Below, one piece after another: positions 6,767-60,535 of a stretch of 64,000 nucleotides of DNA (positions within the stretch are counted from its first letter, which is position 1; each line of letters opens with the position of its first letter). Position numbers and translations under genes: made by a program. The stretch is from an uncultured Gammaproteobacteria bacterium (GTDB lineage: Bacteria > Patescibacteriota > Microgenomatia > Daviesbacterales > UBA10151): positions 1,311-65,310 of the forward strand of contig CAYHYM010000002.1 of the NCBI GenBank assembly GCA_964360965.1, written 5' to 3'. Below the pieces are notes generated by a model. It had not been told where the DNA came from. It saw nothing but the letters and a program-made list of their open reading frames with translations, and made no database searches.

Positions 6767-7495
6767 TTATTGATATTGTTCAATTGCCAATTTTTTGGCT
6801 TCTTCCAAAATTTTTTCCTCACCGGGCAAAATTAGCCTTTGGGTTCTTTTAAAAGATGTTACCCCTCCATTTTGCACTTTTTGCCAAAAATCAATCTGCA
6901 ACTGATGCTCAACTGGCAATACCCTCTTTTGTAATGTTTCAGGGCTGTCATTATCCAAAATTTCCACCTGATGAGTCATCAAAAGTTCTCCCTGATCATA
7001 CTTCTTATTGACCTGATGAATGGTAGCTTCTGTTTGGAAGGGTCTTTTGATTCTTCTTGCAAAATTTAAAACTGCAGCGTGAACCCTTATTCCATACATT
7101 CCCACTCCCCCAAAATCAGGATAGCCTGGATCCAAGGGGCCTGGATGCTGATTAACAATTCTACCTTCAAACTGCTCAACCACATTTTCCGGAGTTAAAA
7201 CCATCCAGCCGTTTTGTGAAACCCAATTAACTTGATACTGGGCAAATTTATCAAGTAGAACCTGGCCATAACTTAAACGAGAAGCTTCCATATCCTCCAC
7301 CCCATCTTTTACCACCTTATATGGTGCTCTGGGCACAATCTCCACCTCCACCATCAATTTTTGAGCTTTTTCTACCACAGCTGCATCTTTATTATTGGTT
7401 ACCACCAACGCCACATCTACCTTCTTAGATTTGATAATGGCCTCAGTAGTGGTGCCTGAACCTGATGCCAAAATGGCCAACCTGATCTTTTCCAT
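6767..7495 (-). CDS. formyltransferase family protein (PurN/GART-like)
   Basis: N-terminal ILASGSGTT Rossmann start. NQHPGPLDP aligns with the PurN NIHPSLLP motif. Aligns with the PurN catalytic HxSLLP segment; no Asp-containing motif could be confirmed by eye. Confidence 0.55.
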   Translation of the reverse strand: MEKIRLAILASGSGTTTEAIIKSKKVDVALVVTNNKDAAVVEKAQKLMVEVEIVPRAPYKVVKDGVEDMEASRLSYGQVLLDKFAQYQVNWVSQNGWMVLTPENVVEQFEGRIVNQHPGPLDPGYPDFGGVGMYGIRVHAAVLNFARRIKRPFQTEATIHQVNKKYDQGELLMTHQVEILDNDSPETLQKRVLPVEHQLQIDFWQKVQNGGVTSFKRTQRLILPGEEKILEEAKKLAIEQYQ

Positions 7496-16656: not shown

Positions 16657-18378
16657 TCAGCTTCTATCAAAGAATTCTACTTTTGAGGCAGGGTCAGGAC
16701 GTTGATCTAACTTAATACCAGAAAGATAGAGATCAGAGTTAGCAATTAGCTGATTGGCTTCATATGCTAATGCCCGATAGTTGATATGTCCACCAGGTCT
16801 ATATCTTAAGTCAGTAAAATAGAGAGCCTGTTTAGGATTACCATGCATATAAAAATCAACCATTTGGCCAAGTGGCATCACGTTGGCTACAAAGCTAAAG
16901 TCTGCTTTATCTCCATATTCAGTTTGTACTTTATCCATTAAACTATATACTCCCTCATAATACCTCTCCATGTCAGTAGTAAAATCTTCTGCCTGCTCTT
17001 CAAACTGATCAACAGCCACTAAATATAATGGCAAACCAAAGCCTTTACAGAGTACCTGTTCTGCTTTCTGTCTACCCCAGGCTTCACCATAAAGCAGTGG
17101 CATAGGCATAAATCTACCCCAGGCTCTTTGTCTGTTAAAATCTCTTTGCACTCCTAAATCAGCAAACACTTGTAAGGTTATATCAGTAACAGCAGCCATA
17201 TAGGAAGGCTCTCGGTACTTATCATGACCATTAAAAATAATTTGACTAATGCGACGTTTAGTTTCATCACTTCTGGTGGACAACCAGCCGTTGACTACCT
17301 CAGCTGGAAGAGCTGGCCAGAGAGTTTGTACGTACTGCATAGCTACCCTTTCCCCCAAACTTATTTGACCCGGTAACAAATTGATTACCTGCTCTTTTCT
17401 TTGAGGAAAACTACCATAGGCTTTAGCAACTCTGAGCAAATCTTCTTTACCCCCAATAAATGTTTTTAACTGCCTTAAGTTTTCATTAACTGTATTATCT
17501 GCTTCGGTATGTCTAATTAAACTGGGTGATTCAGCTTTAAAGATAAGTAATTTTTCAGTCTCTGCATCAGGAGCCAAAAAGGCTTCTAGTTGATTAGCAT
17601 ATCTCCTGTAAAAGGGCACATGTGAAGCCTGAAGTAGAGAAATTATTCTAGACCAGTCTCTAGAGGAGGTCTCGTAAGAAAAACCAGTGCCCTGGCCAAA
17701 CAGCAAAAAGTATCTGGCAGAGTCCAGTACCCGAGAGTTCAGTGCTCCTTTTTGACTGGCATCTGGCTGATAAAATTCTTCATAGGCAGAAGTTAACTTT
17801 TCCCTGTGTTTAGCAAATAACTCTAATGAGAGTCCTCCCAATCCTTGATATTCTTCTTCAATCTCTGGGTTCATTTCATCTATAGGTAAATAGTTACTCA
17901 GTGGATGAAGTACTGCTCTTCTAAAAGAGGGCTGGTAACGGGTGGATTTTTCCTGACCAGAGATGATGTAACCTTCATGAAACATAGTAAAAGCTAGGTG
18001 CATGGGGGTTAAGTGATGGTCTACCTGAATTCTGGCCATATCTCCTACCGACTTATGTCCATATCCAGCAAACATATCATCAATCTTTTGATCAGGATCC
18101 ACTCCTTTTTCACCCATTTCATGATAAATGTCCCAAGGAGTTCCCGGGGCTCTGGATTGCCTGGCTCCACCCCAAGCTTTATGGGCAGCCGTTCTTTTTT
18201 CAGGATTAGCTAGAGGGGAAGTTACTACAACTCCACTCTGTAGATCTTCCATACAGATCATATCCAATCCTGTCTGATCAGCTGAATACCTAAACCAGCG
18301 ATAACCATTATGAGTTAATTCTTTAATTGGTAATAATTCTTGCTGCTCAGACATGTATTCCTCGTATTCCTTTGGCAA
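16657..18378 (-). CDS. large divergent ThyX-like (flavin-dependent thymidylate synthase family) protein with a degenerate active-site motif
   Basis: GHKSVGDMARIQVDHHLTPMHLAFTMFHEGYIISGQEKSTRY aligns with the ThyX block GHETPFEH...FRHRIASYNELSGRY, with RHR replaced by HEG. The C-terminal VMPLGQMVDFYMHGNPKQALYFTDLRY aligns with ThyX [27 protein letters not shown]. Roughly 330 aa lie between the two blocks. Confidence 0.5.
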   Translation of the reverse strand: MPKEYEEYMSEQQELLPIKELTHNGYRWFRYSADQTGLDMICMEDLQSGVVVTSPLANPEKRTAAHKAWGGARQSRAPGTPWDIYHEMGEKGVDPDQKIDDMFAGYGHKSVGDMARIQVDHHLTPMHLAFTMFHEGYIISGQEKSTRYQPSFRRAVLHPLSNYLPIDEMNPEIEEEYQGLGGLSLELFAKHREKLTSAYEEFYQPDASQKGALNSRVLDSARYFLLFGQGTGFSYETSSRDWSRIISLLQASHVPFYRRYANQLEAFLAPDAETEKLLIFKAESPSLIRHTEADNTVNENLRQLKTFIGGKEDLLRVAKAYGSFPQRKEQVINLLPGQISLGERVAMQYVQTLWPALPAEVVNGWLSTRSDETKRRISQIIFNGHDKYREPSYMAAVTDITLQVFADLGVQRDFNRQRAWGRFMPMPLLYGEAWGRQKAEQVLCKGFGLPLYLVAVDQFEEQAEDFTTDMERYYEGVYSLMDKVQTEYGDKADFSFVANVMPLGQMVDFYMHGNPKQALYFTDLRYRPGGHINYRALAYEANQLIANSDLYLSGIKLDQRPDPASKVEFFDRS

Positions 18379-19006
18379 TTAGCTTTGGTTTTATACAAAG
18401 TATAATCCTTTCATGGACTGATTTTATGTCCTCGGTTCCATCTAATAAAACTGCATTGGGATGTTCTTTAGTATATTCTAAATACCCCTCTCTTAATTTT
18501 TTAGAAAACTCTAATCCCTGATGTTCATATATTAAATCTTGCCCCTGCCGATCTTCATTTGATCTCCTTCTAAAACTTTCTTCTGCCGGAATATCTAGCA
18601 CCACAGAAACATCTGGCTGATACTTGTATCCTACAACTAGCCTACTAAGACTCTGGACAAAATCTGTAGCACCCTGAGTATATCCCTGATAGACATAAGT
18701 TGATGGCTCAAAACGGTCTGTAATAACTGTTACCCCCGATGATAAATTTGGCTCCACTATACTTTTAAGAAACTCTACTCTAGCAGCATAGAAAAGCAAA
18801 GCCTGAGCCTGAGGATCCATCATTTTATCTCTTTTCTTAAGTAAAATCTCTCTAATTTCTTCACCCACTTCTGTTCCACCTGGCTCTCTGGTTTGCACAA
18901 CAGGTAAACCTTTACCCTCCAAATATTCTTTCAATAAACCAGACTGAGTAGTTTTACCAGAGTTATCAATTCCTTCAATAACAATAAATAATCCTTTTTC
19001 AACCAT
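18347..19006 (-). CDS. tmk: thymidylate kinase
   Basis: P-loop IEGIDNSGKTTQ. TREPGGT motif. Confidence 0.85.
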   Translation of the reverse strand: MVEKGLFIVIEGIDNSGKTTQSGLLKEYLEGKGLPVVQTREPGGTEVGEEIREILLKKRDKMMDPQAQALLFYAARVEFLKSIVEPNLSSGVTVITDRFEPSTYVYQGYTQGATDFVQSLSRLVVGYKYQPDVSVVLDIPAEESFRRRSNEDRQGQDLIYEHQGLEFSKKLREGYLEYTKEHPNAVLLDGTEDIKSVHERIILCIKPKLIAKGIRGIHV

Positions 19007-19643
19007 GAAGTACTCCATTTCCATTTATGAAATTTTTCCAATATTCACTCGGTATTGGTCTGGGGTCTTCTGAATACTCATTACTATATCTTTTACTCCC
19101 TAAAGAGGGATCTCCATATAAAACATCCGCCGGAGAAGATAAAATTGAAAACCTCATCTGTCCTACCGGCATATTTGGATAGACAATGATCGGTCTCTCA
19201 GTTAGATTAGTTATTTCCAAAGTGCCGTGTCCCCTAAAACCAGGATCAAAAAATCCAGCTGTAGCATGGACCACAAAGCCAAGTCTGCCTAAGCTGCTTT
19301 TTCCATCTAAATTACCTATCAACTGTGCAGGAAAACCAATCCACTCACGAGTAACTCCTAAGAAAAATTCTCTTGGATGTATAGCATGCCCCCTAACTGG
19401 ATCAATAACTTCATAGTCATAAAAATCTTCTACTGGCTTTTTAAGATCTATAGCCGCCTCTCGTACTCTACCTCTGGAAATAAAGGCCAATGTTCTGGCC
19501 AAGTGTAACTCAAGAGAGGCGGGTTGAATATCTAAAGCACAAGGAGCCTTTATCTCTATAAGTCCTGAATCAATCGCTAGTTTAATATCTGGACGGGATA
19601 AAACTGCACCTGGGTATTTTAGGAAATGTAACTCTTCTACCAT
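18999..19643 (-). CDS. dcd: dCTP deaminase (dUTPase superfamily)
   Basis: Length and beta-rich pattern match Dcd, including the conserved GVID-like VIDP region. Confidence 0.65.
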   Translation of the reverse strand: MVEELHFLKYPGAVLSRPDIKLAIDSGLIEIKAPCALDIQPASLELHLARTLAFISRGRVREAAIDLKKPVEDFYDYEVIDPVRGHAIHPREFFLGVTREWIGFPAQLIGNLDGKSSLGRLGFVVHATAGFFDPGFRGHGTLEITNLTERPIIVYPNMPVGQMRFSILSSPADVLYGDPSLGSKRYSNEYSEDPRPIPSEYWKNFINGNGVLHG

Positions 19644-19724: not shown

Positions 19725-20234
19725 TTAATCTCTTTTGCTGGGTTCTAGGTAGAAAAGATTAGCTCCTCTTTTCTTCCACTGATTTACTATTTCAGCTCTG
19801 GTAGTATTTGGCCAATAAACTGATACAGCCACAAAGTTAACTTTAAGTTTCTCACTAACTTGAACTAAAGTATCTAATAACTTTTCACCCACTGTTTCTT
19901 CACCAATCAGATGAGGTATCTCCACAATACCTGTCGGTGATTTTCCAAAAGATGGAGGACAAACTAAAAAAGACTCATCATATGGACTAAATTTACGTCC
20001 TTCTAAAACATACTGATAAAAGTGATTTCTTCTAGCCCCCAAAGGATACATTGACTCCACCACGGTAGCTGATAATTTTTCTAAATCACCTAACCCTTGA
20101 CAGGAAATTAGATTTAACCTTGAAAGTAGAACTGCAGCATATAAAGGGTCAAGGTAGTTTAAATTAATTATTGTTTCACCAAGCGGAGTAGTAGGATAAA
20201 GTGGCCTTTGAACTTCAACTCGGTCAATTACCAT
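19725..20234 (-). CDS. hypothetical protein
   Basis: 169-aa ORF in the operon orientation upstream of dcd. No motif recognised. Confidence 0.45.
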   Translation of the reverse strand: MVIDRVEVQRPLYPTTPLGETIINLNYLDPLYAAVLLSRLNLISCQGLGDLEKLSATVVESMYPLGARRNHFYQYVLEGRKFSPYDESFLVCPPSFGKSPTGIVEIPHLIGEETVGEKLLDTLVQVSEKLKVNFVAVSVYWPNTTRAEIVNQWKKRGANLFYLEPSKRD

Positions 20235-20329
20235 AAATTTTGGGGAGATTTTTAGGGGCCCCCTTTAAACTATCAAGTACCCATGTTTTTGTCAAGGAGT
20301 AACAACCATCTACACACCTTGGATGTGTG

Positions 20330-26682: not shown

Positions 26683-27765
26683 TTAGGGAATTTTACAATA
26701 AATTCCAGACCCTAAGTTTCTGACCACCCCTTTTATTTCCATTTTTAAAAGACCCGATGAAACCTCGGCTGCGCCAAGTTCCAAAATCCTGCATATTTCA
26801 TCTATGTGTTTATTATCATTTTGAAGACAATCAATTATTTTCTTTTCATTTTCGGAAAGATCTGAAACTTTAACCATCTCCTTTTTTACTCCCTCCATTC
26901 CCAACTCCTGTAAAATTTCAGATGAGTCAAAAACCGGCCTGGCCCCTTCTTTGATTAAAGACATTGGGCCTTTTGATAGATCAGAGGTGATTGGTCCTGG
27001 CACGGCAAAAACATCTCTTCCTTGTTCCAAAGCCAATCTGGCAGTAATCAAAGAACCGGAATCCTGAGCCGCCTCGGTTATCAAGACTGCCAAAGATAAC
27101 CCGGCTATAATACGGTTGCGGGAAGGGAAATTTCCGGCCAGAGAAGGATAATCAGGAGGATACTCGGAAATGACAGCCCCAAAACCTTCCGCAATTCTCT
27201 TTACCAGTTGGGTATTTTCAGCCGGAAAGATTTTATTTAACCCCCCACCCAAAACAGCCATAGTTCGGCCCTTCGGCAGGCTCAGAGCAGTCTTGTGCGC
27301 TTGAGTGTCAATCCCCCTGGCCAAACCTGAAACAATGGTAAAGCCTGACAGAACCAGATCACGGGTAAATTTTTCTGTTACCAGCTTGCCGTAACCAGTC
27401 ATTTTTCTGGTACCCACCACAGCAATGGCCCGATCATCCCCAGGTACAATCTCACCTTTATAGTACAAAACTATGGGAGAATCATAAATTTGTTTAAGTA
27501 AGTCAGGGTAGTTATCGTCAAAAATTGTTAACCAGGAAACACCCATCTTCTTAATAGACTCAGCATAAAGGATAGGATCCAGAATCTTTCTGGTTTCTGC
27601 CAAAAGATCCAAAACAGTTTGCGGCACCCCTATTTGTCTAATCTCCTTTAAATTAGCCTCCCAGGCCAGTTTCGGATCTTTAAAATAATCAATTATTGCC
27701 TTCAGCCTAATAGGACCTAGCCCATCAATACTATGCAGCGCCAAAAGATAAGCAATATTTTTCAT
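26683..27765 (-). CDS. dprA: DNA processing protein DprA (Smf)
   Basis: Rossmann-like DprA core GNFPSRNRIIAGLSLAVLITEAAQDSGSLITARLALEQGRDVFAVPG. Start placed at MKNIAY. Confidence 0.85.
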   Translation of the reverse strand: MKNIAYLLALHSIDGLGPIRLKAIIDYFKDPKLAWEANLKEIRQIGVPQTVLDLLAETRKILDPILYAESIKKMGVSWLTIFDDNYPDLLKQIYDSPIVLYYKGEIVPGDDRAIAVVGTRKMTGYGKLVTEKFTRDLVLSGFTIVSGLARGIDTQAHKTALSLPKGRTMAVLGGGLNKIFPAENTQLVKRIAEGFGAVISEYPPDYPSLAGNFPSRNRIIAGLSLAVLITEAAQDSGSLITARLALEQGRDVFAVPGPITSDLSKGPMSLIKEGARPVFDSSEILQELGMEGVKKEMVKVSDLSENEKKIIDCLQNDNKHIDEICRILELGAAEVSSGLLKMEIKGVVRNLGSGIYCKIP

Positions 27766-27793
27766 AATTACCAACTCTTAAGTGTAAAAGGTA

Positions 27794-27820
27794 CTCTTCA
27801 TTATATTCTCGGTCGAGAAC
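27794..27820 (-). promoter_or_regulatory. 27-bp palindrome-plus-TATAAT module, copy upstream of dprA
   Basis: Minus strand reads gTTCTCGaCCGAGAAtataatgaagag, about 30 nt before the dprA ATG. Identical to 28312-28338. Confidence 0.6.
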
Positions 27821-27828
27821 GTTTTGTA

Positions 27829-28311
27829 TCAAAACTTTATAGTACTCGACTCGAAAATACTTACCCATTCGTCTATTCCAACCTTTTTAATATACTCATT
27901 TAGTAGATCAGCACAATTCTTTTTGCTTACCCAAATGCTATTTTGAAACCTTATAAACCCTAATTGTTTTAATTGATGTCTTAATAAATCTCTGGCCTTT
28001 CTCCTTTTTTCTGGAATATCCCACATTATTATTCTCCATTTCCCATCCCATTTTTCATCCTCCAGTTTCATCTTTGCCCAAAGTGCCTTAGTCTTTCCCT
28101 CGTCAGTAATTCTAGCAGCTAGCTCTTCATCACTTATTAGTTCTACAAATCCATTTTCTCTAAGCCTTTTAAAAACAAGTGCCAGCTCTGATTTTTTAAC
28201 TGGTCTCTCTAACAAAGGATTGTGTATAAAATCATCAAACTTAACATAACCATCCACTGTTTTTTCTAAGGTTAGGAGAACTATTTTAGCCAAGCTATTT
28301 TTCTTATTCAT
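27829..28311 (-). CDS. small PaaX-like regulator: winged-helix N-domain plus Cas2-like C-domain
   Basis: C-terminal WRIIMWDIPEKRRKARDLLRHQLKQLGFIRFQNSIWVS follows the Cas2/PaaX-C pattern (YDI...RRR...L...G.R.QNSVF). Flanked by identical 27-bp modules. Confidence 0.55.
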   Translation of the reverse strand: MNKKNSLAKIVLLTLEKTVDGYVKFDDFIHNPLLERPVKKSELALVFKRLRENGFVELISDEELAARITDEGKTKALWAKMKLEDEKWDGKWRIIMWDIPEKRRKARDLLRHQLKQLGFIRFQNSIWVSKKNCADLLNEYIKKVGIDEWVSIFESSTIKF

Positions 28312-41513: not shown

Positions 41514-42115
41514 AGGGAGAGAATTTGGGAATAATCGTGCGGGACAAAACTTAACTTTCTTGGTAAAATTTTATGGTCCTTCCATCTTCGACGGTTTTTG
41601 GGGTCAACTTGTATCTGGATCGAATGGTTAAAACCTGCCGGCTCAATATTGGGCAAACCGCTGATATTTAATTCCGCTTGTTCACCTTCATCAGGATAAA
41701 GAAGATATCCGAACCTTCCAACCTGTAAATGTTCTATCAGATGAACGATTTTTAACTGATCAGCATCTACCTCACCCAACCTAATCCTGATGGCAATTTC
41801 CCAGGCAGTAATTCTCCCATCCTCTGGTAAATACTCCAAGAAATGTTGTTTGGCCCCAAAACCCAAAAAATGCTGACTCCATAAAATGGCACCGTCATCA
41901 GTTGCAAAAGTACCATTAGGCTTTAAGCTTTCAGGCTTAATTCCTGACTTTAAACGCCTGATAATGGGAGGCAAATCCCAAGTAGCACTTAGTTTTGTAT
42001 GCACTAATTTATCCAATTTGTTACAATCCCCATAATGGAAGTTGTCAAAGCGCCTGATCCCAGGCTTAAAATTCAGACAAAACCTGTCAAAAAAATAAAT
42101 CCAGCTCTTTTGCAA
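41510..42115 (-). CDS. hypothetical protein (start uncertain; annotated ATG overlaps the def start)
   Basis: 201-aa ORF. Its 5' 80 nt overlap the def N-terminus. Confidence 0.4.
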   Translation of the reverse strand: MQKSWIYFFDRFCLNFKPGIRRFDNFHYGDCNKLDKLVHTKLSATWDLPPIIRRLKSGIKPESLKPNGTFATDDGAILWSQHFLGFGAKQHFLEYLPEDGRITAWEIAIRIRLGEVDADQLKIVHLIEHLQVGRFGYLLYPDEGEQAELNISGLPNIEPAGFNHSIQIQVDPKNRRRWKDHKILPRKLSFVPHDYSQILSL

Positions 42116-42610
42116 ATTTTAAAAGAGATGATTAAACTGACCAAAACCTTTAAGGAACCGGAAGGTGTGGGTTTGGCCTCCACCCAAATAGGTTTGGATG
42201 AGGCTTTTTTTGTAGCTCGCCTCGATGAGTCGGCGAAGCCACGCCAAAGGCGGGCGAAGCGGGCCAAAAATGGCAATCCGCCAGCTGGCGGATTTATTTC
42301 TGTTATAAATCCTAAAGTTTTATCTTATGGTAAACGCACTAAAAAATATTTTGAAGGATGCCTGTCTTCTCCCAATATTTGGGGTGAAGTTAAAAGATAT
42401 ACCTTAATGAAGGTTTCTTACCAGGATTCACATGGAAAATCCATCACCCAGACTTTCAAAGGAATCACTGCCTGGATTTTCCAGCATGAAATGGATCACT
42501 TAAATGGAATTTTATTCCAGGATCGGGTTTTGCAACAAAAAGGCAAGTTTTTTAAATTTACAGGCCGTGATAAAACAGGTCAGGATATATTTGAAGAGGT
42601 AACAATATGA
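42035..42610 (+). CDS. def: peptide deformylase with an in-frame basic insert
   Basis: Motifs GVGLASTQIG, EGCLS and HEMDHL. Insert DESAKPRQRRAKRAKNGNPPAGG is encoded by a GC-rich repeat. Confidence 0.85.
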   Translation: MEVVKAPDPRLKIQTKPVKKINPALLQILKEMIKLTKTFKEPEGVGLASTQIGLDEAFFVARLDESAKPRQRRAKRAKNGNPPAGGFISVINPKVLSYGKRTKKYFEGCLSSPNIWGEVKRYTLMKVSYQDSHGKSITQTFKGITAWIFQHEMDHLNGILFQDRVLQQKGKFFKFTGRDKTGQDIFEEVTI

Positions 42611-43476
42611 AAAAAATTGTTTATTTCGGTACTCCTGAGTTTAGCGCCTATATCCTGGAAAAACTGCTTCAGTTTTGCCAGACAAAAAAATTCATTGTTC
42701 AGACAGTGGTCACTAGAGCAGATAAACCTGTGGGCAGAGAACAGACTGTGATGCAATCTCCAGTTGCCATGGTGGCCCAAAAATATGGCATTCTTGCTTT
42801 AAAACCACTTAAGCTTGATGAGCAGTTCCTCATTACCAACTACCCACTACTAACTGCTGACCTCTTCATAGTGGCTTCTTATGGCAAAATTATCCCTCAA
42901 AGTTTACTTGATATACCCAGGTTAGGCTCAATTAATGTTCATCCATCTCTTCTACCTAAATATAGGGGGCCAGCACCAATCCTTACCCCCATCTTAAATG
43001 GTGATAAAGAAACTGGAGTAACAATCATGTTAATGGACGCGGAAATGGATCATGGGCCACTTCTTGCTACAAGCAAGATTAGTATATCAGATCAGGATAA
43101 TCATCAGACTCTGACTACAAAACTTGCTCAGGGGTCTGCCCCACTTTTAATTGAAACTTTGGTTAAATTTGTTGGGGGAAGGATAAAACCCAAGAAACAA
43201 AAACACTCTCAGGCCACTTTTACCAAGTTTACCAAAAAAGAAGATAGTTATTTTGATATTAGCAGTCCCCCTGATCCAGAGGTTTTAGAAAGAATGATCA
43301 GGGCATATTATCCCTGGCCAGTTGTTTGGACCCGCTTTCGCCCTTCGGGCTCCAGCGGGCAAGCCCGCATCGTTAAATTCCTACCCAACAATATGCTGCA
43401 AATGGAAGGCAAAAAGCCAATATCTTTCAAAGACTTCCTAAACGGCTACCCAGATTTTCCCTTTAAAAGTATTTAA
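42607..43476 (+). CDS. fmt: methionyl-tRNA formyltransferase
   Basis: N-terminal IVYFGTPEFS. HPSLLPKYRG formyltransferase motif. def-fmt operon. Confidence 0.85.
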   Translation: MKKIVYFGTPEFSAYILEKLLQFCQTKKFIVQTVVTRADKPVGREQTVMQSPVAMVAQKYGILALKPLKLDEQFLITNYPLLTADLFIVASYGKIIPQSLLDIPRLGSINVHPSLLPKYRGPAPILTPILNGDKETGVTIMLMDAEMDHGPLLATSKISISDQDNHQTLTTKLAQGSAPLLIETLVKFVGGRIKPKKQKHSQATFTKFTKKEDSYFDISSPPDPEVLERMIRAYYPWPVVWTRFRPSGSSGQARIVKFLPNNMLQMEGKKPISFKDFLNGYPDFPFKSI

Positions 43477-49938: not shown

Positions 49939-51252
49939 ATGGCTGATGATCCACCAAGAAAGCAGCATGAGCATGCCTCTTTGATTTTCCCCAAAGACTT
50001 TTTATGGGGAACTGCCACATCTGCCCATCAGGTAGAAGGGAACAACTTTTTTAATGATTGGTGGGACTGGGAAATACGCCATCAGCCTTTATCCATGCGC
50101 TCAGGGCGAGCCTGTGACCAATATCATTTATATGAAAAAGATTTTAATCTGGCCCGCTCTTTGGGCCATAATGCCCACAGGTTATCTATTGAATGGTCCA
50201 GGATAGAACCCGAAGAAGGAAAATTTGATGAGGCTGAAATTGAGCATTATGTTAAGTTACTTAAATACCTTAAATCGCTTAATTTTAAGGTGATGTTGAC
50301 TCTTTGGCACTTTACACTTCCGAAGTGGTTAGCAGATAGGGGTGGCTGGGAAAATGGTAAAACTGTTGATTATTTCATCAGATTTGTGGAAAAAATTGTA
50401 CCCAAACTAAAAGATGATATTGATCTATGGATCACCATCAATGAACCTGGAGTGGCTGTTTCTCAGGGGTATTTAGTGGCTGTTTGGCCTCCCCAAAAAA
50501 AGAGCAAATGGGCTGCTTTGAAAGCCTACTGGAATATGACCCAAGCTCACAAAAAAGCTTATAAAATCATCCATAGACTGGTACCAGACGCTCAAGTTGG
50601 TATAGCCAATAACCTAGCTTCTTTTGATGCCTTTCATCACCACTCGGTCTTAGAAGGAATCTCTGAATGGGGACTAGATATTATTAATAATCACCTATTT
50701 TATAAATTAACAGGCATGGGAACCCATGATTTTTTAGGCATTAACTATTACTTTAATCAGTATATTAGCTTCAGTGGCAAATCCAGATTTCCTTCCCTGG
50801 TTGATATCTCAACCACTAAAAAAGATGTTTCTGATATGGGATGGGAGATCTATCCGGAGGGGATGTTTGACATATTGATGGACTTTTCTGATTATCACAA
50901 ACCGATGTATATTACTGAAAATGGTTTGGCTTCTACCAATGATGATCGTAGGGTTAGGTTTTTACTCTCTTATCTTAAAGAAATTTATCATGCCATCCAA
51001 ACAGGAGCGGATGTGAAAGGATATTTTCATTGGAGTCTAATTGATAACTTTGAATGGACAGACGGCTTTACCCCCAGATTTGGTCTGATGGAAGTTGACT
51101 ATTCTACTCAGAAGCGTATTCCCAGACCCTCAGCTTATGTTTATCAAGAAATTATTAAGCATAATGGTATAGAACATAAAATGTTAAAACTACTTGGCCA
51201 TGGATTAAATGTAGAAGAGGAGCTAAAAAAGATGGCCAAAAAGGATCATTAA
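49939..51252 (+). CDS. glycoside hydrolase family 1 beta-glucosidase/beta-galactosidase
   Basis: GH1 N-terminal signature FLWGTATSAHQVEG. Acid/base region TINEP and nucleophile motif ITENG. Confidence 0.85.
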   Translation: MADDPPRKQHEHASLIFPKDFLWGTATSAHQVEGNNFFNDWWDWEIRHQPLSMRSGRACDQYHLYEKDFNLARSLGHNAHRLSIEWSRIEPEEGKFDEAEIEHYVKLLKYLKSLNFKVMLTLWHFTLPKWLADRGGWENGKTVDYFIRFVEKIVPKLKDDIDLWITINEPGVAVSQGYLVAVWPPQKKSKWAALKAYWNMTQAHKKAYKIIHRLVPDAQVGIANNLASFDAFHHHSVLEGISEWGLDIINNHLFYKLTGMGTHDFLGINYYFNQYISFSGKSRFPSLVDISTTKKDVSDMGWEIYPEGMFDILMDFSDYHKPMYITENGLASTNDDRRVRFLLSYLKEIYHAIQTGADVKGYFHWSLIDNFEWTDGFTPRFGLMEVDYSTQKRIPRPSAYVYQEIIKHNGIEHKMLKLLGHGLNVEEELKKMAKKDH

Positions 51253-51809
51253 TGACTGAACAAGTACAACCCCCTGATTTTCGTAGGCAGCTCTGGATTG
51301 ATCTTCTTAAAGCGGCGCGGGAAGGTAGACCAATCAGTGAACAGGACAAGAAGGCCTTAGAGTTAAGAAAGTTATGTCTTCAGGTAGCTGATACTTTAAC
51401 AGATTTAGTGATTGATCCTAAGATTGAAAATAGTGTAGAAGAGGCTGAACTAGTTGCTAAGCTAGCAGATGAGTTACAAAACATCAAAGAATATGGTGTT
51501 GTAGGCAGTATGCATGTAGGGGACCCCCCAGAATCATTTAATACTACCCTCAAAATGACTGAATATCTGGCAGGACAAATTATAAACGCATTGGAACAAG
51601 CAACTTTAGTTACACCTACCCAGATTAATCCTCAACTAGAAGAATTTAGTGAGGTCTACCAGAAAACACCAGATGGAGTAATGGCTATGATGAATAGTGA
51701 CTATATCTCTCCAAACGTGACTGATTTTACTGTAATAGTTGGAGTTAGAAATTTAACACGCGCAAGACTTTACGCTGACTTAGAAAGTTCTCTAGAAAAT
51801 CAGACCTAA
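51252..51809 (+). CDS. hypothetical protein
   Basis: 185-aa ORF. ATGA overlap with the GH1 stop. Confidence 0.5.
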   Translation: MTEQVQPPDFRRQLWIDLLKAAREGRPISEQDKKALELRKLCLQVADTLTDLVIDPKIENSVEEAELVAKLADELQNIKEYGVVGSMHVGDPPESFNTTLKMTEYLAGQIINALEQATLVTPTQINPQLEEFSEVYQKTPDGVMAMMNSDYISPNVTDFTVIVGVRNLTRARLYADLESSLENQT

Positions 51810-51865
51810 GAATAAAAAGGCGTAGCTTGAATGCTACAGTGTCCACATAGTATGGTAAATACAGT

Positions 51866-52762
51866 ATGAATTTTTTAACTATTACTGTCTTAGGTTATGC
51901 CTTAAATGGTTTGACTGTCTTAATTGATAAAATTTTACTCAATAAAGCTCTGCCACACCCCATTATTTATACCTTTTATATCTCTGTGATGGGTTTTGTG
52001 ACGATTTTTTTTGCCCCCTTTGGATTTCACCTAAATTTTGGAGTAGCGCTCTGGGGCACCCTAGCTGGTATTTTTGGAGTTTTGGGTACTGTTGCCTATT
52101 TTGAAAGTTTAAAACATGGAGAAGCTTCCACGGTCCCAGCTGTAATTGGGGCTCTAAATCCTATTTTTACTCTCATTTTAGGCTTTGCCCTATTTAAAGA
52201 TACTTTAACTACTACCCAAATTTTAGCTTTTTTTACTTTACTTTTGGGAGCAGCTATTTTAACTACTAAGTACTGGATGAAAGTAAGAGTAAATAAACAA
52301 CTAGCTTTGATGTTCCTGTCAGGATTTTTATTTGCCCTGACAGCTTTAACCTTAAGAGAGTCTTTTTTAGCTAGTAATTTTATCTCAGGACTAGTAGTTA
52401 GTAGAGTAGCTGGAGGTTTGTTAGTGCTGCCACTTCTTTTTTCCTCTCATTTTAGAATCCAGATATTTGCTTCAAGGTTAACTAAACACCACTTTGCTAA
52501 TAAAACCTCTATGCTTTTATTAGGGGGGCAGTTAATGGGAGCTGTAGGAGGACTCCTTCTGACCTTTGCTATCTCCCTAGAAAATCCAGCTTTAGTTAAT
52601 TCCCTGTTTGGAGTTCAATATCTGGTTATTCTAACAGTAGCTTTGAGTTTATATAAAAAGCATCCTCATCTTTTCGATGAGAGATTAACCAAATCTGTGG
52701 TCATTCAAAAAATTATAGGAGTATTATTTTTAAGTCTTGGTCTTTACCTACTGGCAACATAA
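51866..52762 (+). CDS. EamA/DMT-superfamily transporter
   Basis: Ten predicted TM helices in two repeat halves. Confidence 0.7.
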   Translation: MNFLTITVLGYALNGLTVLIDKILLNKALPHPIIYTFYISVMGFVTIFFAPFGFHLNFGVALWGTLAGIFGVLGTVAYFESLKHGEASTVPAVIGALNPIFTLILGFALFKDTLTTTQILAFFTLLLGAAILTTKYWMKVRVNKQLALMFLSGFLFALTALTLRESFLASNFISGLVVSRVAGGLLVLPLLFSSHFRIQIFASRLTKHHFANKTSMLLLGGQLMGAVGGLLLTFAISLENPALVNSLFGVQYLVILTVALSLYKKHPHLFDERLTKSVVIQKIIGVLFLSLGLYLLAT

Positions 52763-52763
52763 C

Positions 52764-53795
52764 ATGAAGAAAGTATACAAAAAGATTAACCATACAAAAC
52801 ATTTAATTATCATCGTAGCCTTGGGAATAGTTGGACTTTTTACTGTTTTAGTTATGGGTAATATTTATTATGAAAAAATTTATCCTGTCTCATCCAGTGT
52901 TCAATTTGGAGTCACTTTTTCTCCTTATTATGCTCAGGATTTAGGACAAGATTGGAAAACCACCTATTTAAGTTTAATCCAAGATTTAAAAGTTAAAAAT
53001 ATCAGATTAAATAGCTACTGGGATATCATCCAACCTGCTCCAACCCAGTTTAATTTCCAAGATTTAGATTACATGTTTGATCTGGCCAGTAAAAATAATG
53101 TTAAAGTTTTATTGATAGTGGGCATTAAACAGTCTCGCTGGCCAGAGTGTAGAATTCCAGGGTGGGCCAAGGAGCTATCTTTAGGTGAACGTCGTCAAAA
53201 AAATCTAGAGTTTATAGAGAAAGTTATCACCAGATATCAAAATAACTCCAGTTTATGGGCTTATCAGGTAGAAAATGAACCTTTGCTTAACTATGGACAT
53301 GCTTGTGATCCTCATGATAGAGATTATTTAAAACAAGAGGTGCAATTTGTTAAAAAATTAGATCCTCGAAAACCTATTATTCTAACTGATTCTGGAGAGC
53401 TAAGATTTTGGAGAACACCTATGCAGCTAGCTGATATTTTTGGTACTACCCTTTATCGTGAAACTTATAATCCCATCCTGGGCTATTTTTACTGGCCGCT
53501 ACCTCCTGCCTTTTATAATTTTAAATCTAGCTTAATTACCAAAATATTTGCCCAGGGAATTCAAAAAACCATTATTGTGGAGCTTCAAACTGAACCTTGG
53601 CTTCCTCAAGAACCCGCTAAAATACCAGTTGAGGATCAAATTGAGATTTTTGACTTAGATAATTTTAAAAATAATGTAGAGTTTGCCAGAAGAACTGGTT
53701 TTGATACCACTATTTTATGGGGGGTTGAGTGGTGGTATTATATGTCCTCAAAAAATCATCCAGAATATCTGGAATATGCCAAAACACTATTTTAA
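52764..53795 (+). CDS. membrane-anchored clan GH-A glycoside hydrolase (GH5-like TIM barrel)
   Basis: N-terminal TM. VENEPL catalytic acid/base NEP motif. Later EL.TEPW region. Confidence 0.5.
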   Translation: MKKVYKKINHTKHLIIIVALGIVGLFTVLVMGNIYYEKIYPVSSSVQFGVTFSPYYAQDLGQDWKTTYLSLIQDLKVKNIRLNSYWDIIQPAPTQFNFQDLDYMFDLASKNNVKVLLIVGIKQSRWPECRIPGWAKELSLGERRQKNLEFIEKVITRYQNNSSLWAYQVENEPLLNYGHACDPHDRDYLKQEVQFVKKLDPRKPIILTDSGELRFWRTPMQLADIFGTTLYRETYNPILGYFYWPLPPAFYNFKSSLITKIFAQGIQKTIIVELQTEPWLPQEPAKIPVEDQIEIFDLDNFKNNVEFARRTGFDTTILWGVEWWYYMSSKNHPEYLEYAKTLF

Positions 53796-59734: not shown

Positions 59735-60535
59735 TTGTATAATAAAATTATGTTTACTACTTTAAAACAAAAAATTATTCTGGCCATCTATATCTTTATT
59801 CTTATTTCAATACCAATTGGCTCGTATCTGGCATCTTCCCGTCAAACTTATAAAAGCAAAGCCGCAGAAGCAGATCATGTCATTATTTCTTCACCTGATG
59901 AGGAAAAAGAAAAATCTGCCACCAAATCTGCCAAAAAAACAACCACTCCAGCTTCCACTCCTTCGCCTTCGCCCACAGTGGCTGTATCTTTTGGGCCTAC
60001 CATGAACTTAAAGCTTATTTTGGAAGGAAGACCCAAAGACAAATATGCCGGCAAAGTTTTTATTGGCATTGCCGAAGGGACATCTTTCTCATCTGGCGGG
60101 CCCAAATATCTGCTGCAGTTTACTATAGACTTGCCCTCATCTGGATTTTTTGAAGGTTTGTCTTTGGCAGGACTCTCAGCTGGCACTACTTACTCAGCCT
60201 ATATCAAACCTACAGTTCAAATTGCCACCTCTTCCGCTTTTATCATGTCACCATCAATTACCAATTTAAACAGCGGAGCTCCTTTGACCATTTTAACAGG
60301 TGATTTAAATGAGGATAACACCATAAATTCGGCTGATTACTCCATTGCCAAGGCAGCTTTTGGCGCAATACCATCATCCTCAAATTGGAATGAAAATATT
60401 GATTTTAATAAGGATCAAAGAATAAACAGCTTTGATTTGGGGCTGATTGTTAAAAATTTTGGCAAAACAGGACTGTCCGGAGTGTGGATTTCACCCACCC
60501 CCGCCACTAAATCAGGATCAATTGACAAATTATAA
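59735..60535 (+). CDS. secreted protein with C-terminal dockerin-like repeats
   Basis: N-terminal TM/signal. STP-rich linker. Paired Ca-binding-like repeats DLNEDNTINSADYS and DFNKDQRINSFDLGLI. Confidence 0.55.
   Translation: MYNKIMFTTLKQKIILAIYIFILISIPIGSYLASSRQTYKSKAAEADHVIISSPDEEKEKSATKSAKKTTTPASTPSPSPTVAVSFGPTMNLKLILEGRPKDKYAGKVFIGIAEGTSFSSGGPKYLLQFTIDLPSSGFFEGLSLAGLSAGTTYSAYIKPTVQIATSSAFIMSPSITNLNSGAPLTILTGDLNEDNTINSADYSIAKAAFGAIPSSSNWNENIDFNKDQRINSFDLGLIVKNFGKTGLSGVWISPTPATKSGSIDKL

Follow-up and report, generated by a model that had tools for sequence, protein, structure and literature searches.

A long-form ThyX encoded beside dcd and tmk in a Patescibacteria contig, very probably a tandem of two ThyX domains with a divided active-site motif

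Canonical flavin-dependent thymidylate synthases (ThyX; PF02511, TIGR02170), such as TM0449 of Thermotoga maritima, Rv2754c of Mycobacterium tuberculosis and A674R of PBCV-1, are chains of 200-250 amino acids (aa) that carry the motif RHRx7SxRY on one chain and assemble into a homotetramer with 222 symmetry and four identical active sites. In one such site, subunit A gives the RHR residues, which contact the phosphates, ribityl and isoalloxazine of flavin adenine dinucleotide (FAD) as well as deoxyuridine monophosphate (dUMP), together with M. tuberculosis Arg199 (R174 in T. maritima numbering, hereafter Tm; PMC6514825, section 3.1). The FAD-phosphate ligands Ser71 and Arg190 (Tm T55 and R165) come from subunit B, and Gln103 (backbone), Ser105, Arg107 and the Tyr108 lid (Tm E86, S88, R90 and Y91) from subunit C (PMC6514825). 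Activation of dUMP is attributed to R174, while S88, R90 and Y91 help the methylene transfer from the flavin carbinolamine (PMC8316439). Here we analyze a ThyX gene on the minus strand (16657-18378; maximal open reading frame (ORF) of 573 aa from TTG) of a 64,000-nucleotide stretch of contig CAYHYM010000002.1, referred to as the window, from a member of the Patescibacteria, which belong to the Candidate Phyla Radiation (CPR). The protein shares with canonical ThyX the common fold, the catalytic residue set and the metabolic position between Dcd and Tmk, but differs in having two fused domains (about 570 aa), a split motif and two of four sites that are predicted to be dead.

Two other groups of described proteins come close to it. 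PolB, the polyoxin UMP/dUMP C5-methylase (PDB 4p5a and 4p5b), shares the ThyX fold and was among the top structural matches; it is, however, a short single-domain protein from an antibiotic gene cluster, whereas the window protein has two domains and housekeeping neighbours (topA, dcd, tmk, rpsB, tsf and frr). A PolB-type assignment, that is, a single ThyX domain in a nucleoside-antibiotic cluster, was considered and set aside, as it agrees neither with the neighbours nor with the two domains. Nearer are long-form 'ThyX' proteins of 500-600 aa from Patescibacteria, Ktedonobacteria, DPANN archaea and Microcystis phages (PHROG 36506), which are full-length homologues with 23-77% identity and the same split motif. 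To this large subfamily, which databases already label ThyX, the window gene belongs, and it encodes neither a broken nor an exotic enzyme. From its long-form relatives it differs by RQR in place of RHR, as in close Daviesbacteria relatives, and by a locus in which pyrG is missing and an orphan ORF is found instead.

To the ThyX family the protein was assigned by profiles and by fold. Pfam Thy1 matches it in two stretches, the best being residues 98-253, and the similarity is well beyond chance because the score of 43.6 bits (E 3.7e-11) stands against a gathering score of 24.8; 40 of 41 relatives match the same profile. PHROG 36506 ('thymidylate synthase') matches over the full length (6e-33). 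Structure models of the complete protein and of its C-terminal half each recovered ThyX/PolB folds only. For the C-terminal half alone (predicted local distance difference test score, pLDDT, 91.7), Foldseek returned 87 matches at E<=1e-3, of which the top 50 were all ThyX or PolB. Searching the PDB by sequence with the single protein or a close-family profile found no ThyX; with a broad-family profile, the C-terminal half matched PBCV-1 ThyX (2cfa, E 7.5e-8). A first-pass annotation, made by a model from the sequence alone, had read the gene as ThyX-like and had proposed a Thy1 profile search and a structure comparison as the check; both agree with that reading.

Each half of the protein aligns separately to full-length canonical ThyX. 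In hhalign comparisons the N-terminal domain (residues 35-285; 17524-18276, minus strand as for all features of the gene) aligned to Tm residues 7-215 and the C-terminal domain (residues 326-566; 16681-17403) to Tm residues 9-217, both with probability 91.5% and E 8.6e-7. Because both halves do so, the protein is very probably a tandem ThyX-ThyX fusion with a split active-site motif, and the internal duplication that the first-pass annotation had listed as one option is the one these alignments bear out.

The two domains retain different parts of the catalytic set (residue numbers refer to the 573-aa maximal ORF). Exactly the residues given by subunits B and C, hereafter roles B and C, are kept in the N-terminal half: H108, S110 and R240 for role B, and E143, S145, R147, Y148 and R222 for role C. 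They lie in HKSVGD (residues 108-113; 18040-18057), where H108, S110 and D113 correspond to Tm H53, T55 and E58 (H in 100%, S in 99% and D in 90% of the family); in SGQEKSTRYQ (140-149; 17932-17961), where E143, S145, R147 and Y148 correspond to E86, S88, R90 and Y91 of dUMP binding and methylene transfer; and in R216-x-x-D219-x-x-R222 to R240 (17659-17733), where D219, R222 and R240 correspond to E144, R147 and R165 (D 100%, R 99%, R 97%). Further upstream, GARQSR (71-76; 18151-18168) aligns S75 with Tm S30, and S75 and R76 are found in 100% of the family. At the position of RHR (Tm R78/H79/R80) the same half has H134, E135 and G136 (17971-17979), with 0% Arg family-wide, and L249 stands at the R174 position; residues 134-148 read HEGYIISGQEKSTRY (17935-17979).

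The C-terminal half keeps exactly the residues of subunit A (role A), namely R416-Q417-R418, R525 and H531. The segment RDFNRQRAWGRF (residues 412-423; 17110-17145) aligns R416, Q417 and R418 with Tm R78, H79 and R80, R422 with R90 and F423 with Y91, and RYRPGGHINYR (525-535; 16774-16806) aligns R525 with the dUMP-activating R174 and H531 approximately with H178 (R 100%, H 86%). Behind RQR, a six-residue deletion removes the equivalents of E86 and S88; the same gap was seen independently in a HMMER alignment to PBCV-1 ThyX. In addition, A498 occupies the R147 position and K516 the variable R165 position. A contiguous RHRx7S(xRY) is thus absent from both domains, the N-terminal one reading HEG...S-T-R-Y and the C-terminal one RQR followed by the deletion, and together they hold a complete set for at least one site: RQR and R525 from the C-terminal half, and S110, R240, E143, S145, R147, Y148 and R222 from the N-terminal half. 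Since the RHR and SxRY parts of one canonical site lie on different chains, the split motif corresponds to a division already made between subunits. The replacement of RHR by HEG that the first-pass annotation described therefore holds for the N-terminal position, while the RHR part itself persists in the C-terminal half; the motif called degenerate there is instead divided between two fused domains, and the distance from Y148 to the second conserved block (R525-R535) is about 377 aa rather than about 330 aa.

How general this division is was determined in an alignment of 373 full-length family members with 23-77% identity to the window protein, to which all conservation percentages given here refer. 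The role A residues of the C-terminal half were R in 99%, H in 94% (Q in 6%) and R in 98%, with the R174 equivalent R in 100%; at the corresponding N-terminal positions Arg was at 0% throughout. Role B was found in the N-terminal half (H 100%, S 99%, R 97%), while the R165 equivalent of the C-terminal half was K in 45% and D in 37%. Role C likewise resided in the N-terminal half (E 94%, S 100%, R 100%, Y/F 100%, R147 equivalent R 99%), the C-terminal half having Glu and Ser deleted and a variable R147 equivalent. As judged from this alignment, the complementarity of the two halves is nearly absolute. Of 71 full-length genomic homologues, bacterial and archaeal, 70 had the N-terminal motif and 63 a strict C-terminal pattern, the two at a spacing of about 276 aa; a cis-intact RHRx7SxR[YF] was seen in none of them. 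The family also has invariants of its own with no counterpart in canonical ThyX, namely R76, D413, Y520, Y534/R535 and a C-terminal EFFDRS.

To account for these patterns we propose that ThyX was duplicated in tandem and that each copy afterwards lost a different, complementary half of the active-site residues. Under 222 symmetry, a first site built from subunits A, B and C would have the mates (B, A, D), (C, D, A) and (D, C, B). With role A in the C-terminal half and roles B and C in the N-terminal half, a single solution would be left, in which A and D are C-terminal halves and B and C are N-terminal halves. Two chains would then form a homodimer that acts as a pseudo-tetramer with two complete sites, while RHR, the Ser loop and the R174 and R165 equivalents would be missing from the other two. 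Because the symmetry and the split roles leave two live and two dead sites, each chain would be expected to hold roughly one FAD site and one dUMP site. The enzyme would serve as the thymidylate synthase of the cell and catalyze the normal ThyX reaction, in which dUMP, methylenetetrahydrofolate (CH2-THF) and NADPH yield thymidine monophosphate (dTMP), with substrate coming from the adjacent Dcd and product going to the translationally coupled Tmk. Taken as a whole, we regard this explanation as likely. Of its parts, the ordinary conversion of dUMP to dTMP is likely too, and the two-site homodimer is somewhat favoured. The tandem architecture is uncommon but widespread, and the protein most likely serves ordinary thymidylate synthase function.

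Several observations weigh against this explanation. When the N- and C-terminal halves were compared directly by hhalign, the probability was 0.6%, i.e. no mutual similarity was detectable; the duplication is too old for such a comparison and was therefore demonstrated through canonical ThyX as an intermediate. The reference ThyX sequences in those alignments were entered by hand; at each of the 34 residues that were checked the numbering agreed with the literature, as did the length of both sequences. The window protein does not reach the cut-off of the NCBIfam thyX equivalog TIGR02170 (12.3 bits versus 87.9) and, unlike 29 of 41 relatives, does not match it at E<0.01. RQR stands in place of RHR in the window protein, in its Daviesbacteria relatives and in 6% of the family. 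PDB searches yielded no solved structure for any long-family member, and no member was found to be biochemically characterized. Finally, R422 (97% Arg), F423 (F/Y 88%) and probably H385 (87% His, in an ambiguous part of the alignment) are conserved in the C-terminal half, at the sites predicted to be dead, and are left unexplained by the simple two-site model. Either the shortened loop places these residues in the live site, or some other role persists at the 'dead' sites.

This conservation is also what speaks for a functional long ThyX with a different assembly, be it a monomer, another oligomer or a dimer whose 'dead' sites are kept as NADPH or allosteric sites; the shortened C-terminal loop could shift R422 into the live site in such an arrangement as well. 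We consider a different assembly unlikely. In canonical ThyX, two different subunits supply roles B and C, both of which are found here in the N-terminal half only, so that a single chain would be unable to complete a canonical site, and 222 symmetry permits only C-terminal halves at A and D with N-terminal halves at B and C. More improbable still is a paralogue of ThyX whose substrate or chemistry has changed (a PolB-like UMP/dUMP methylase, an enzyme for dCMP or a modified pyrimidine, or a hydroxymethylase) that works beside a normal thymidylate synthase encoded elsewhere. Such a paralogue would fit the strong divergence, with TIGR02170 far below its cut-off and no PDB sequence match short of a broad profile, as well as the PolB structures among the best fold matches, the invariants R76, D413, Y520 and Y534/R535, and the homologues in cyanophages, which often modify nucleotides; the search for thyA and thyX covered the 64-kb window, and a normal synthase could lie in the genome beyond it. 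Against it stand R525, the equivalent of the uracil-recognizing and -activating R174, and the S/R/Y triad of methylene transfer, all of them invariant, and the neighbours conserved in many minimal genomes, dcd and tmk, which encode the steps just before and after dTMP synthesis. Further, the surroundings (topA, rpsB, tsf, frr) are housekeeping genes rather than a biosynthetic or phage-like cluster, and the PolB matches were no better than those to genuine ThyX.

A dead pseudo-enzyme or a regulatory nucleotide-binding protein derived from ThyX is the least probable of the alternatives, although each domain taken alone appears inactive, the N-terminal half having neither RHR nor R174 and the C-terminal half no Ser loop. 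The losses are exactly complementary, and each catalytic residue is conserved at 94-100% in one half among members of only 23-77% identity, which argues for selection on a working composite site; moreover, the family is widespread in reduced genomes, where dead enzymes rarely persist. Altered chemistry and a pseudo-enzyme had both been offered in the first-pass annotation, and both are disfavoured here since, between them, the two halves conserve all known residues that bind dUMP or FAD or activate dUMP. As a more speculative extension of the tandem, two-site explanation, the long form may be an obligate asymmetric pseudo-tetramer whose other two sites were turned into, for example, NADPH or allosteric nucleotide sites, and much of CPR and DPANN may have no other thymidylate synthase than this form, which would have spread by horizontal transfer across domains and into cyanophages. 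A converted second pair of sites is hinted at by the unexplained conservation of R422, F423 and H385, yet we hold this extension to be tentative and rather doubtful.

The gene is the last of four consecutive ORFs on the minus strand, in the order 169-aa ORF, dcd, tmk and the 573-aa ORF, which was verified at 16657-18378; topA lies upstream and rpsB-tsf-frr downstream. dcd (dCTP deaminase family; 18999-19643) matches TIGR02274 at 2e-36 (125.3 bits versus a cut-off of 92.8) and overlaps tmk (dTMP kinase; 18347-19024), which matches TIGR00041 at 1.7e-48 (164.9 bits versus 83.25) and whose stop overlaps the ThyX start. Within 18347-18378, an alternative ATG at 18354 (Met9), with GAGGA 4 nucleotides (nt) upstream, gives a protein of 565 aa and overlaps the tmk stop by 8 nt (ATGTCTGA). 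Orthologues begin at the equivalent ATG, and that of Daviesbacteria has 566 aa and an identical 8-nt overlap with tmk. Because of these starts, the overlap and the upstream GAGGA, the real start is probably ATG 18354, giving a 565-aa protein translationally coupled to tmk.

Both neighbours are recurrent. Of 82 loci, at least 22 have dcd directly beside the long ThyX gene and at least 15 have tmk there; these are lower bounds, as tblastn with the window Dcd missed an annotated Dcd in the Daviesbacteria locus of CP066688.1 (L001). The linkage extends to distant CPR lineages and DPANN archaea, in which ThyX identity to the window protein is 28-45%. Daviesbacteria relatives show the order topA-pyrG-dcd-tmk-thyX-rpsB, and in Ktedonobacteria the long thyX stands alone. 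Within the 64-kb window no dut gene was found, and tblastn for canonical ThyA or ThyX, for which the first-pass annotation had proposed a search of the genome, gave only matches at E>=0.18. The genomic context of a route from dCTP to dTMP and dTDP, which the first-pass annotation had read from the gene order, is in keeping with these results; Dcd may deliver dUTP or, if it is of the bifunctional dCTP deaminase/dUTPase type, dUMP directly. A scan of the cluster for promoters and terminators was at chance (12 found versus 10.3 expected, and 2 versus 3.0), and therefore we make no claim about operon boundaries.

Other genes of the window bear on pyrimidine and folate metabolism. Between 33045 and 36652 lie pyrF (orotidine monophosphate decarboxylase), a pyrE-like phosphoribosyltransferase gene and a gene for a weakly matching dihydroorotate (DHO)-dehydrogenase-like protein of 387 aa, whose match is limited to the C-terminal part, with a TrmB/MarR-type regulator on the opposite strand. 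This pyrimidine de novo cluster is notable for a CPR genome, as CPR bacteria are usually described as being without nucleotide synthesis. Further, fmt lies beside def (42035-43476), and a 242-aa protein with a Formyl_trans_N domain only is encoded at 6767-7495. From pyrF, pyrE, the DHO-dehydrogenase-like gene, def-fmt and the second formyltransferase-domain protein it follows that the organism makes pyrimidines and uses folates. A dTMP-forming role of the long ThyX is indirectly supported, since the dcd/tmk linkage and the folate-using enzymes fit a CH2-THF-dependent ThyX, and with the pyrE-, pyrF- and pyrD-like genes the organism would retain the capacity for pyrimidine and dTMP synthesis.

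The long form is a large family. A word-indexed search returned 311 homologues of the window protein, and a profile search of 1.84 billion cluster representatives put the family at no fewer than 858 clusters (E<=1e-3), of which 177 reached E<=1e-30, nearly all of 500-600 aa; many members are labelled 'FAD-dependent thymidylate synthase' or 'ThyX' by NCBI and JGI. In a scan of species-representative genomes it was found in Patescibacteria/CPR (Davies-, Woese-, Dojka-, Sacchari- and Paceibacteria and SR1), in Ktedonobacteria, in DPANN archaea (Woesearchaeota, Nanoarchaeota), and in some Bdellovibrionota and Limisphaerales. The nearest relatives of the window protein are those of Candidatus Daviesbacteria, with 73-76% identity, and its source is most likely a CPR genome of Daviesbacteria-like type. 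Homologues with 27% identity at 89% coverage occur in the Microcystis phages Ma-LMM01 and the MaMV group and in a Microcoleus phage (for example NC_008562.1, 15795-17168), labelled thymidylate synthase in some records and hypothetical protein in others.

Within the family, a subclade of about 576 aa with 43-54% identity unites Davies- and Woesebacteria (CPR Microgenomates) with DPANN archaea and with Ktedonobacteria, the latter being free-living and having large genomes, and other CPR lineages have a type of about 531 aa with only 28-34% identity. This distribution points to horizontal transfer between phyla and between domains. A small number of loci carry the label of Methanosarcinales, Pseudomonadales or Gammaproteobacteria metagenome-assembled genomes and may be mis-binned. 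With respect to the Ktedonobacteria, the Foldseek match 3ge9 (Corynebacterium glutamicum ThyX) carries the title 'structurally atypical... not required for thymidylate biosynthesis'. An organism with ThyA may thus be able to do without its ThyX homologue, which is relevant to these large genomes with the long form. CPR and DPANN symbionts are often said to lack nucleotide synthesis, and the long form appears to be the thymidylate synthase form of many of these ultra-small organisms.

Literature searches for tandem, fused or duplicated ThyX and for ThyX in CPR, DPANN and Ktedonobacteria found, in the library that was searched, no description of the architecture or of the split motif, and a transposon sequencing (Tn-seq) paper on Saccharibacteria leaves thymidylate synthesis unmentioned. 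The ThyX of Chlamydia trachomatis (CT632) is reportedly a biochemically active enzyme of about 529 aa and may be a member of the long form. That this protein was cloned and assayed is documented (PMC3498832). A homologue search from a 529-aa family member returned Patescibacteria only and did not establish a link to Chlamydia ThyX; if the chlamydial enzyme belongs to the long form, the function of the family would be anchored experimentally. For annotation, the family implies that a ThyX-like protein without RHR beside SxRY needs to be examined for a second domain before the word 'degenerate' is applied to it. For enzymology, it is an experiment made by nature, in which sequence alone confirms that three subunits make up the ThyX site, and the predicted half-of-the-sites enzyme would suit asymmetric mutagenesis, with each role mutable in one place per chain.

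The 169-aa ORF at 19725-20234 (minus strand), which the first-pass annotation had taken to complete the operon, does exist at that position and has no part in a conserved cluster. It matched nothing in Pfam, NCBIfam or PHROG, was its own only match among 5.8e9 proteins and had no homologue in 82 related loci. In the window (19725-20329) pyrG is missing between topA and dcd and this ORF is present instead, whereas relatives have pyrG there, some of them together with a small ORF that varies; in the closest relative, pyrG is accompanied in the same slot by an unrelated 193-aa ORF. By these comparisons it is an orphan in a variable slot and no conserved cluster member; a pyrG remnant or a conserved partner was rejected on the lack of homologues and the unrelated 193-aa ORF.

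Two further regions of the window deserve mention. At 26683-28311, a gene for a 160-aa protein with the PaaX central (Cas2-like) domain lies beside dprA; the same pair occurs in Daviesbacteria CP066688.1 (L001, 2157-3813) and thus represents a conserved pair. At 49939-53795 and 59735-60535, a beta-glucosidase of glycoside hydrolase family 1 (GH1) and a GH42-like protein are encoded, as are an EamA transporter and a dockerin type I protein of 266 aa; genes related to carbohydrates, as these are, are unusual in a CPR genome of small size.

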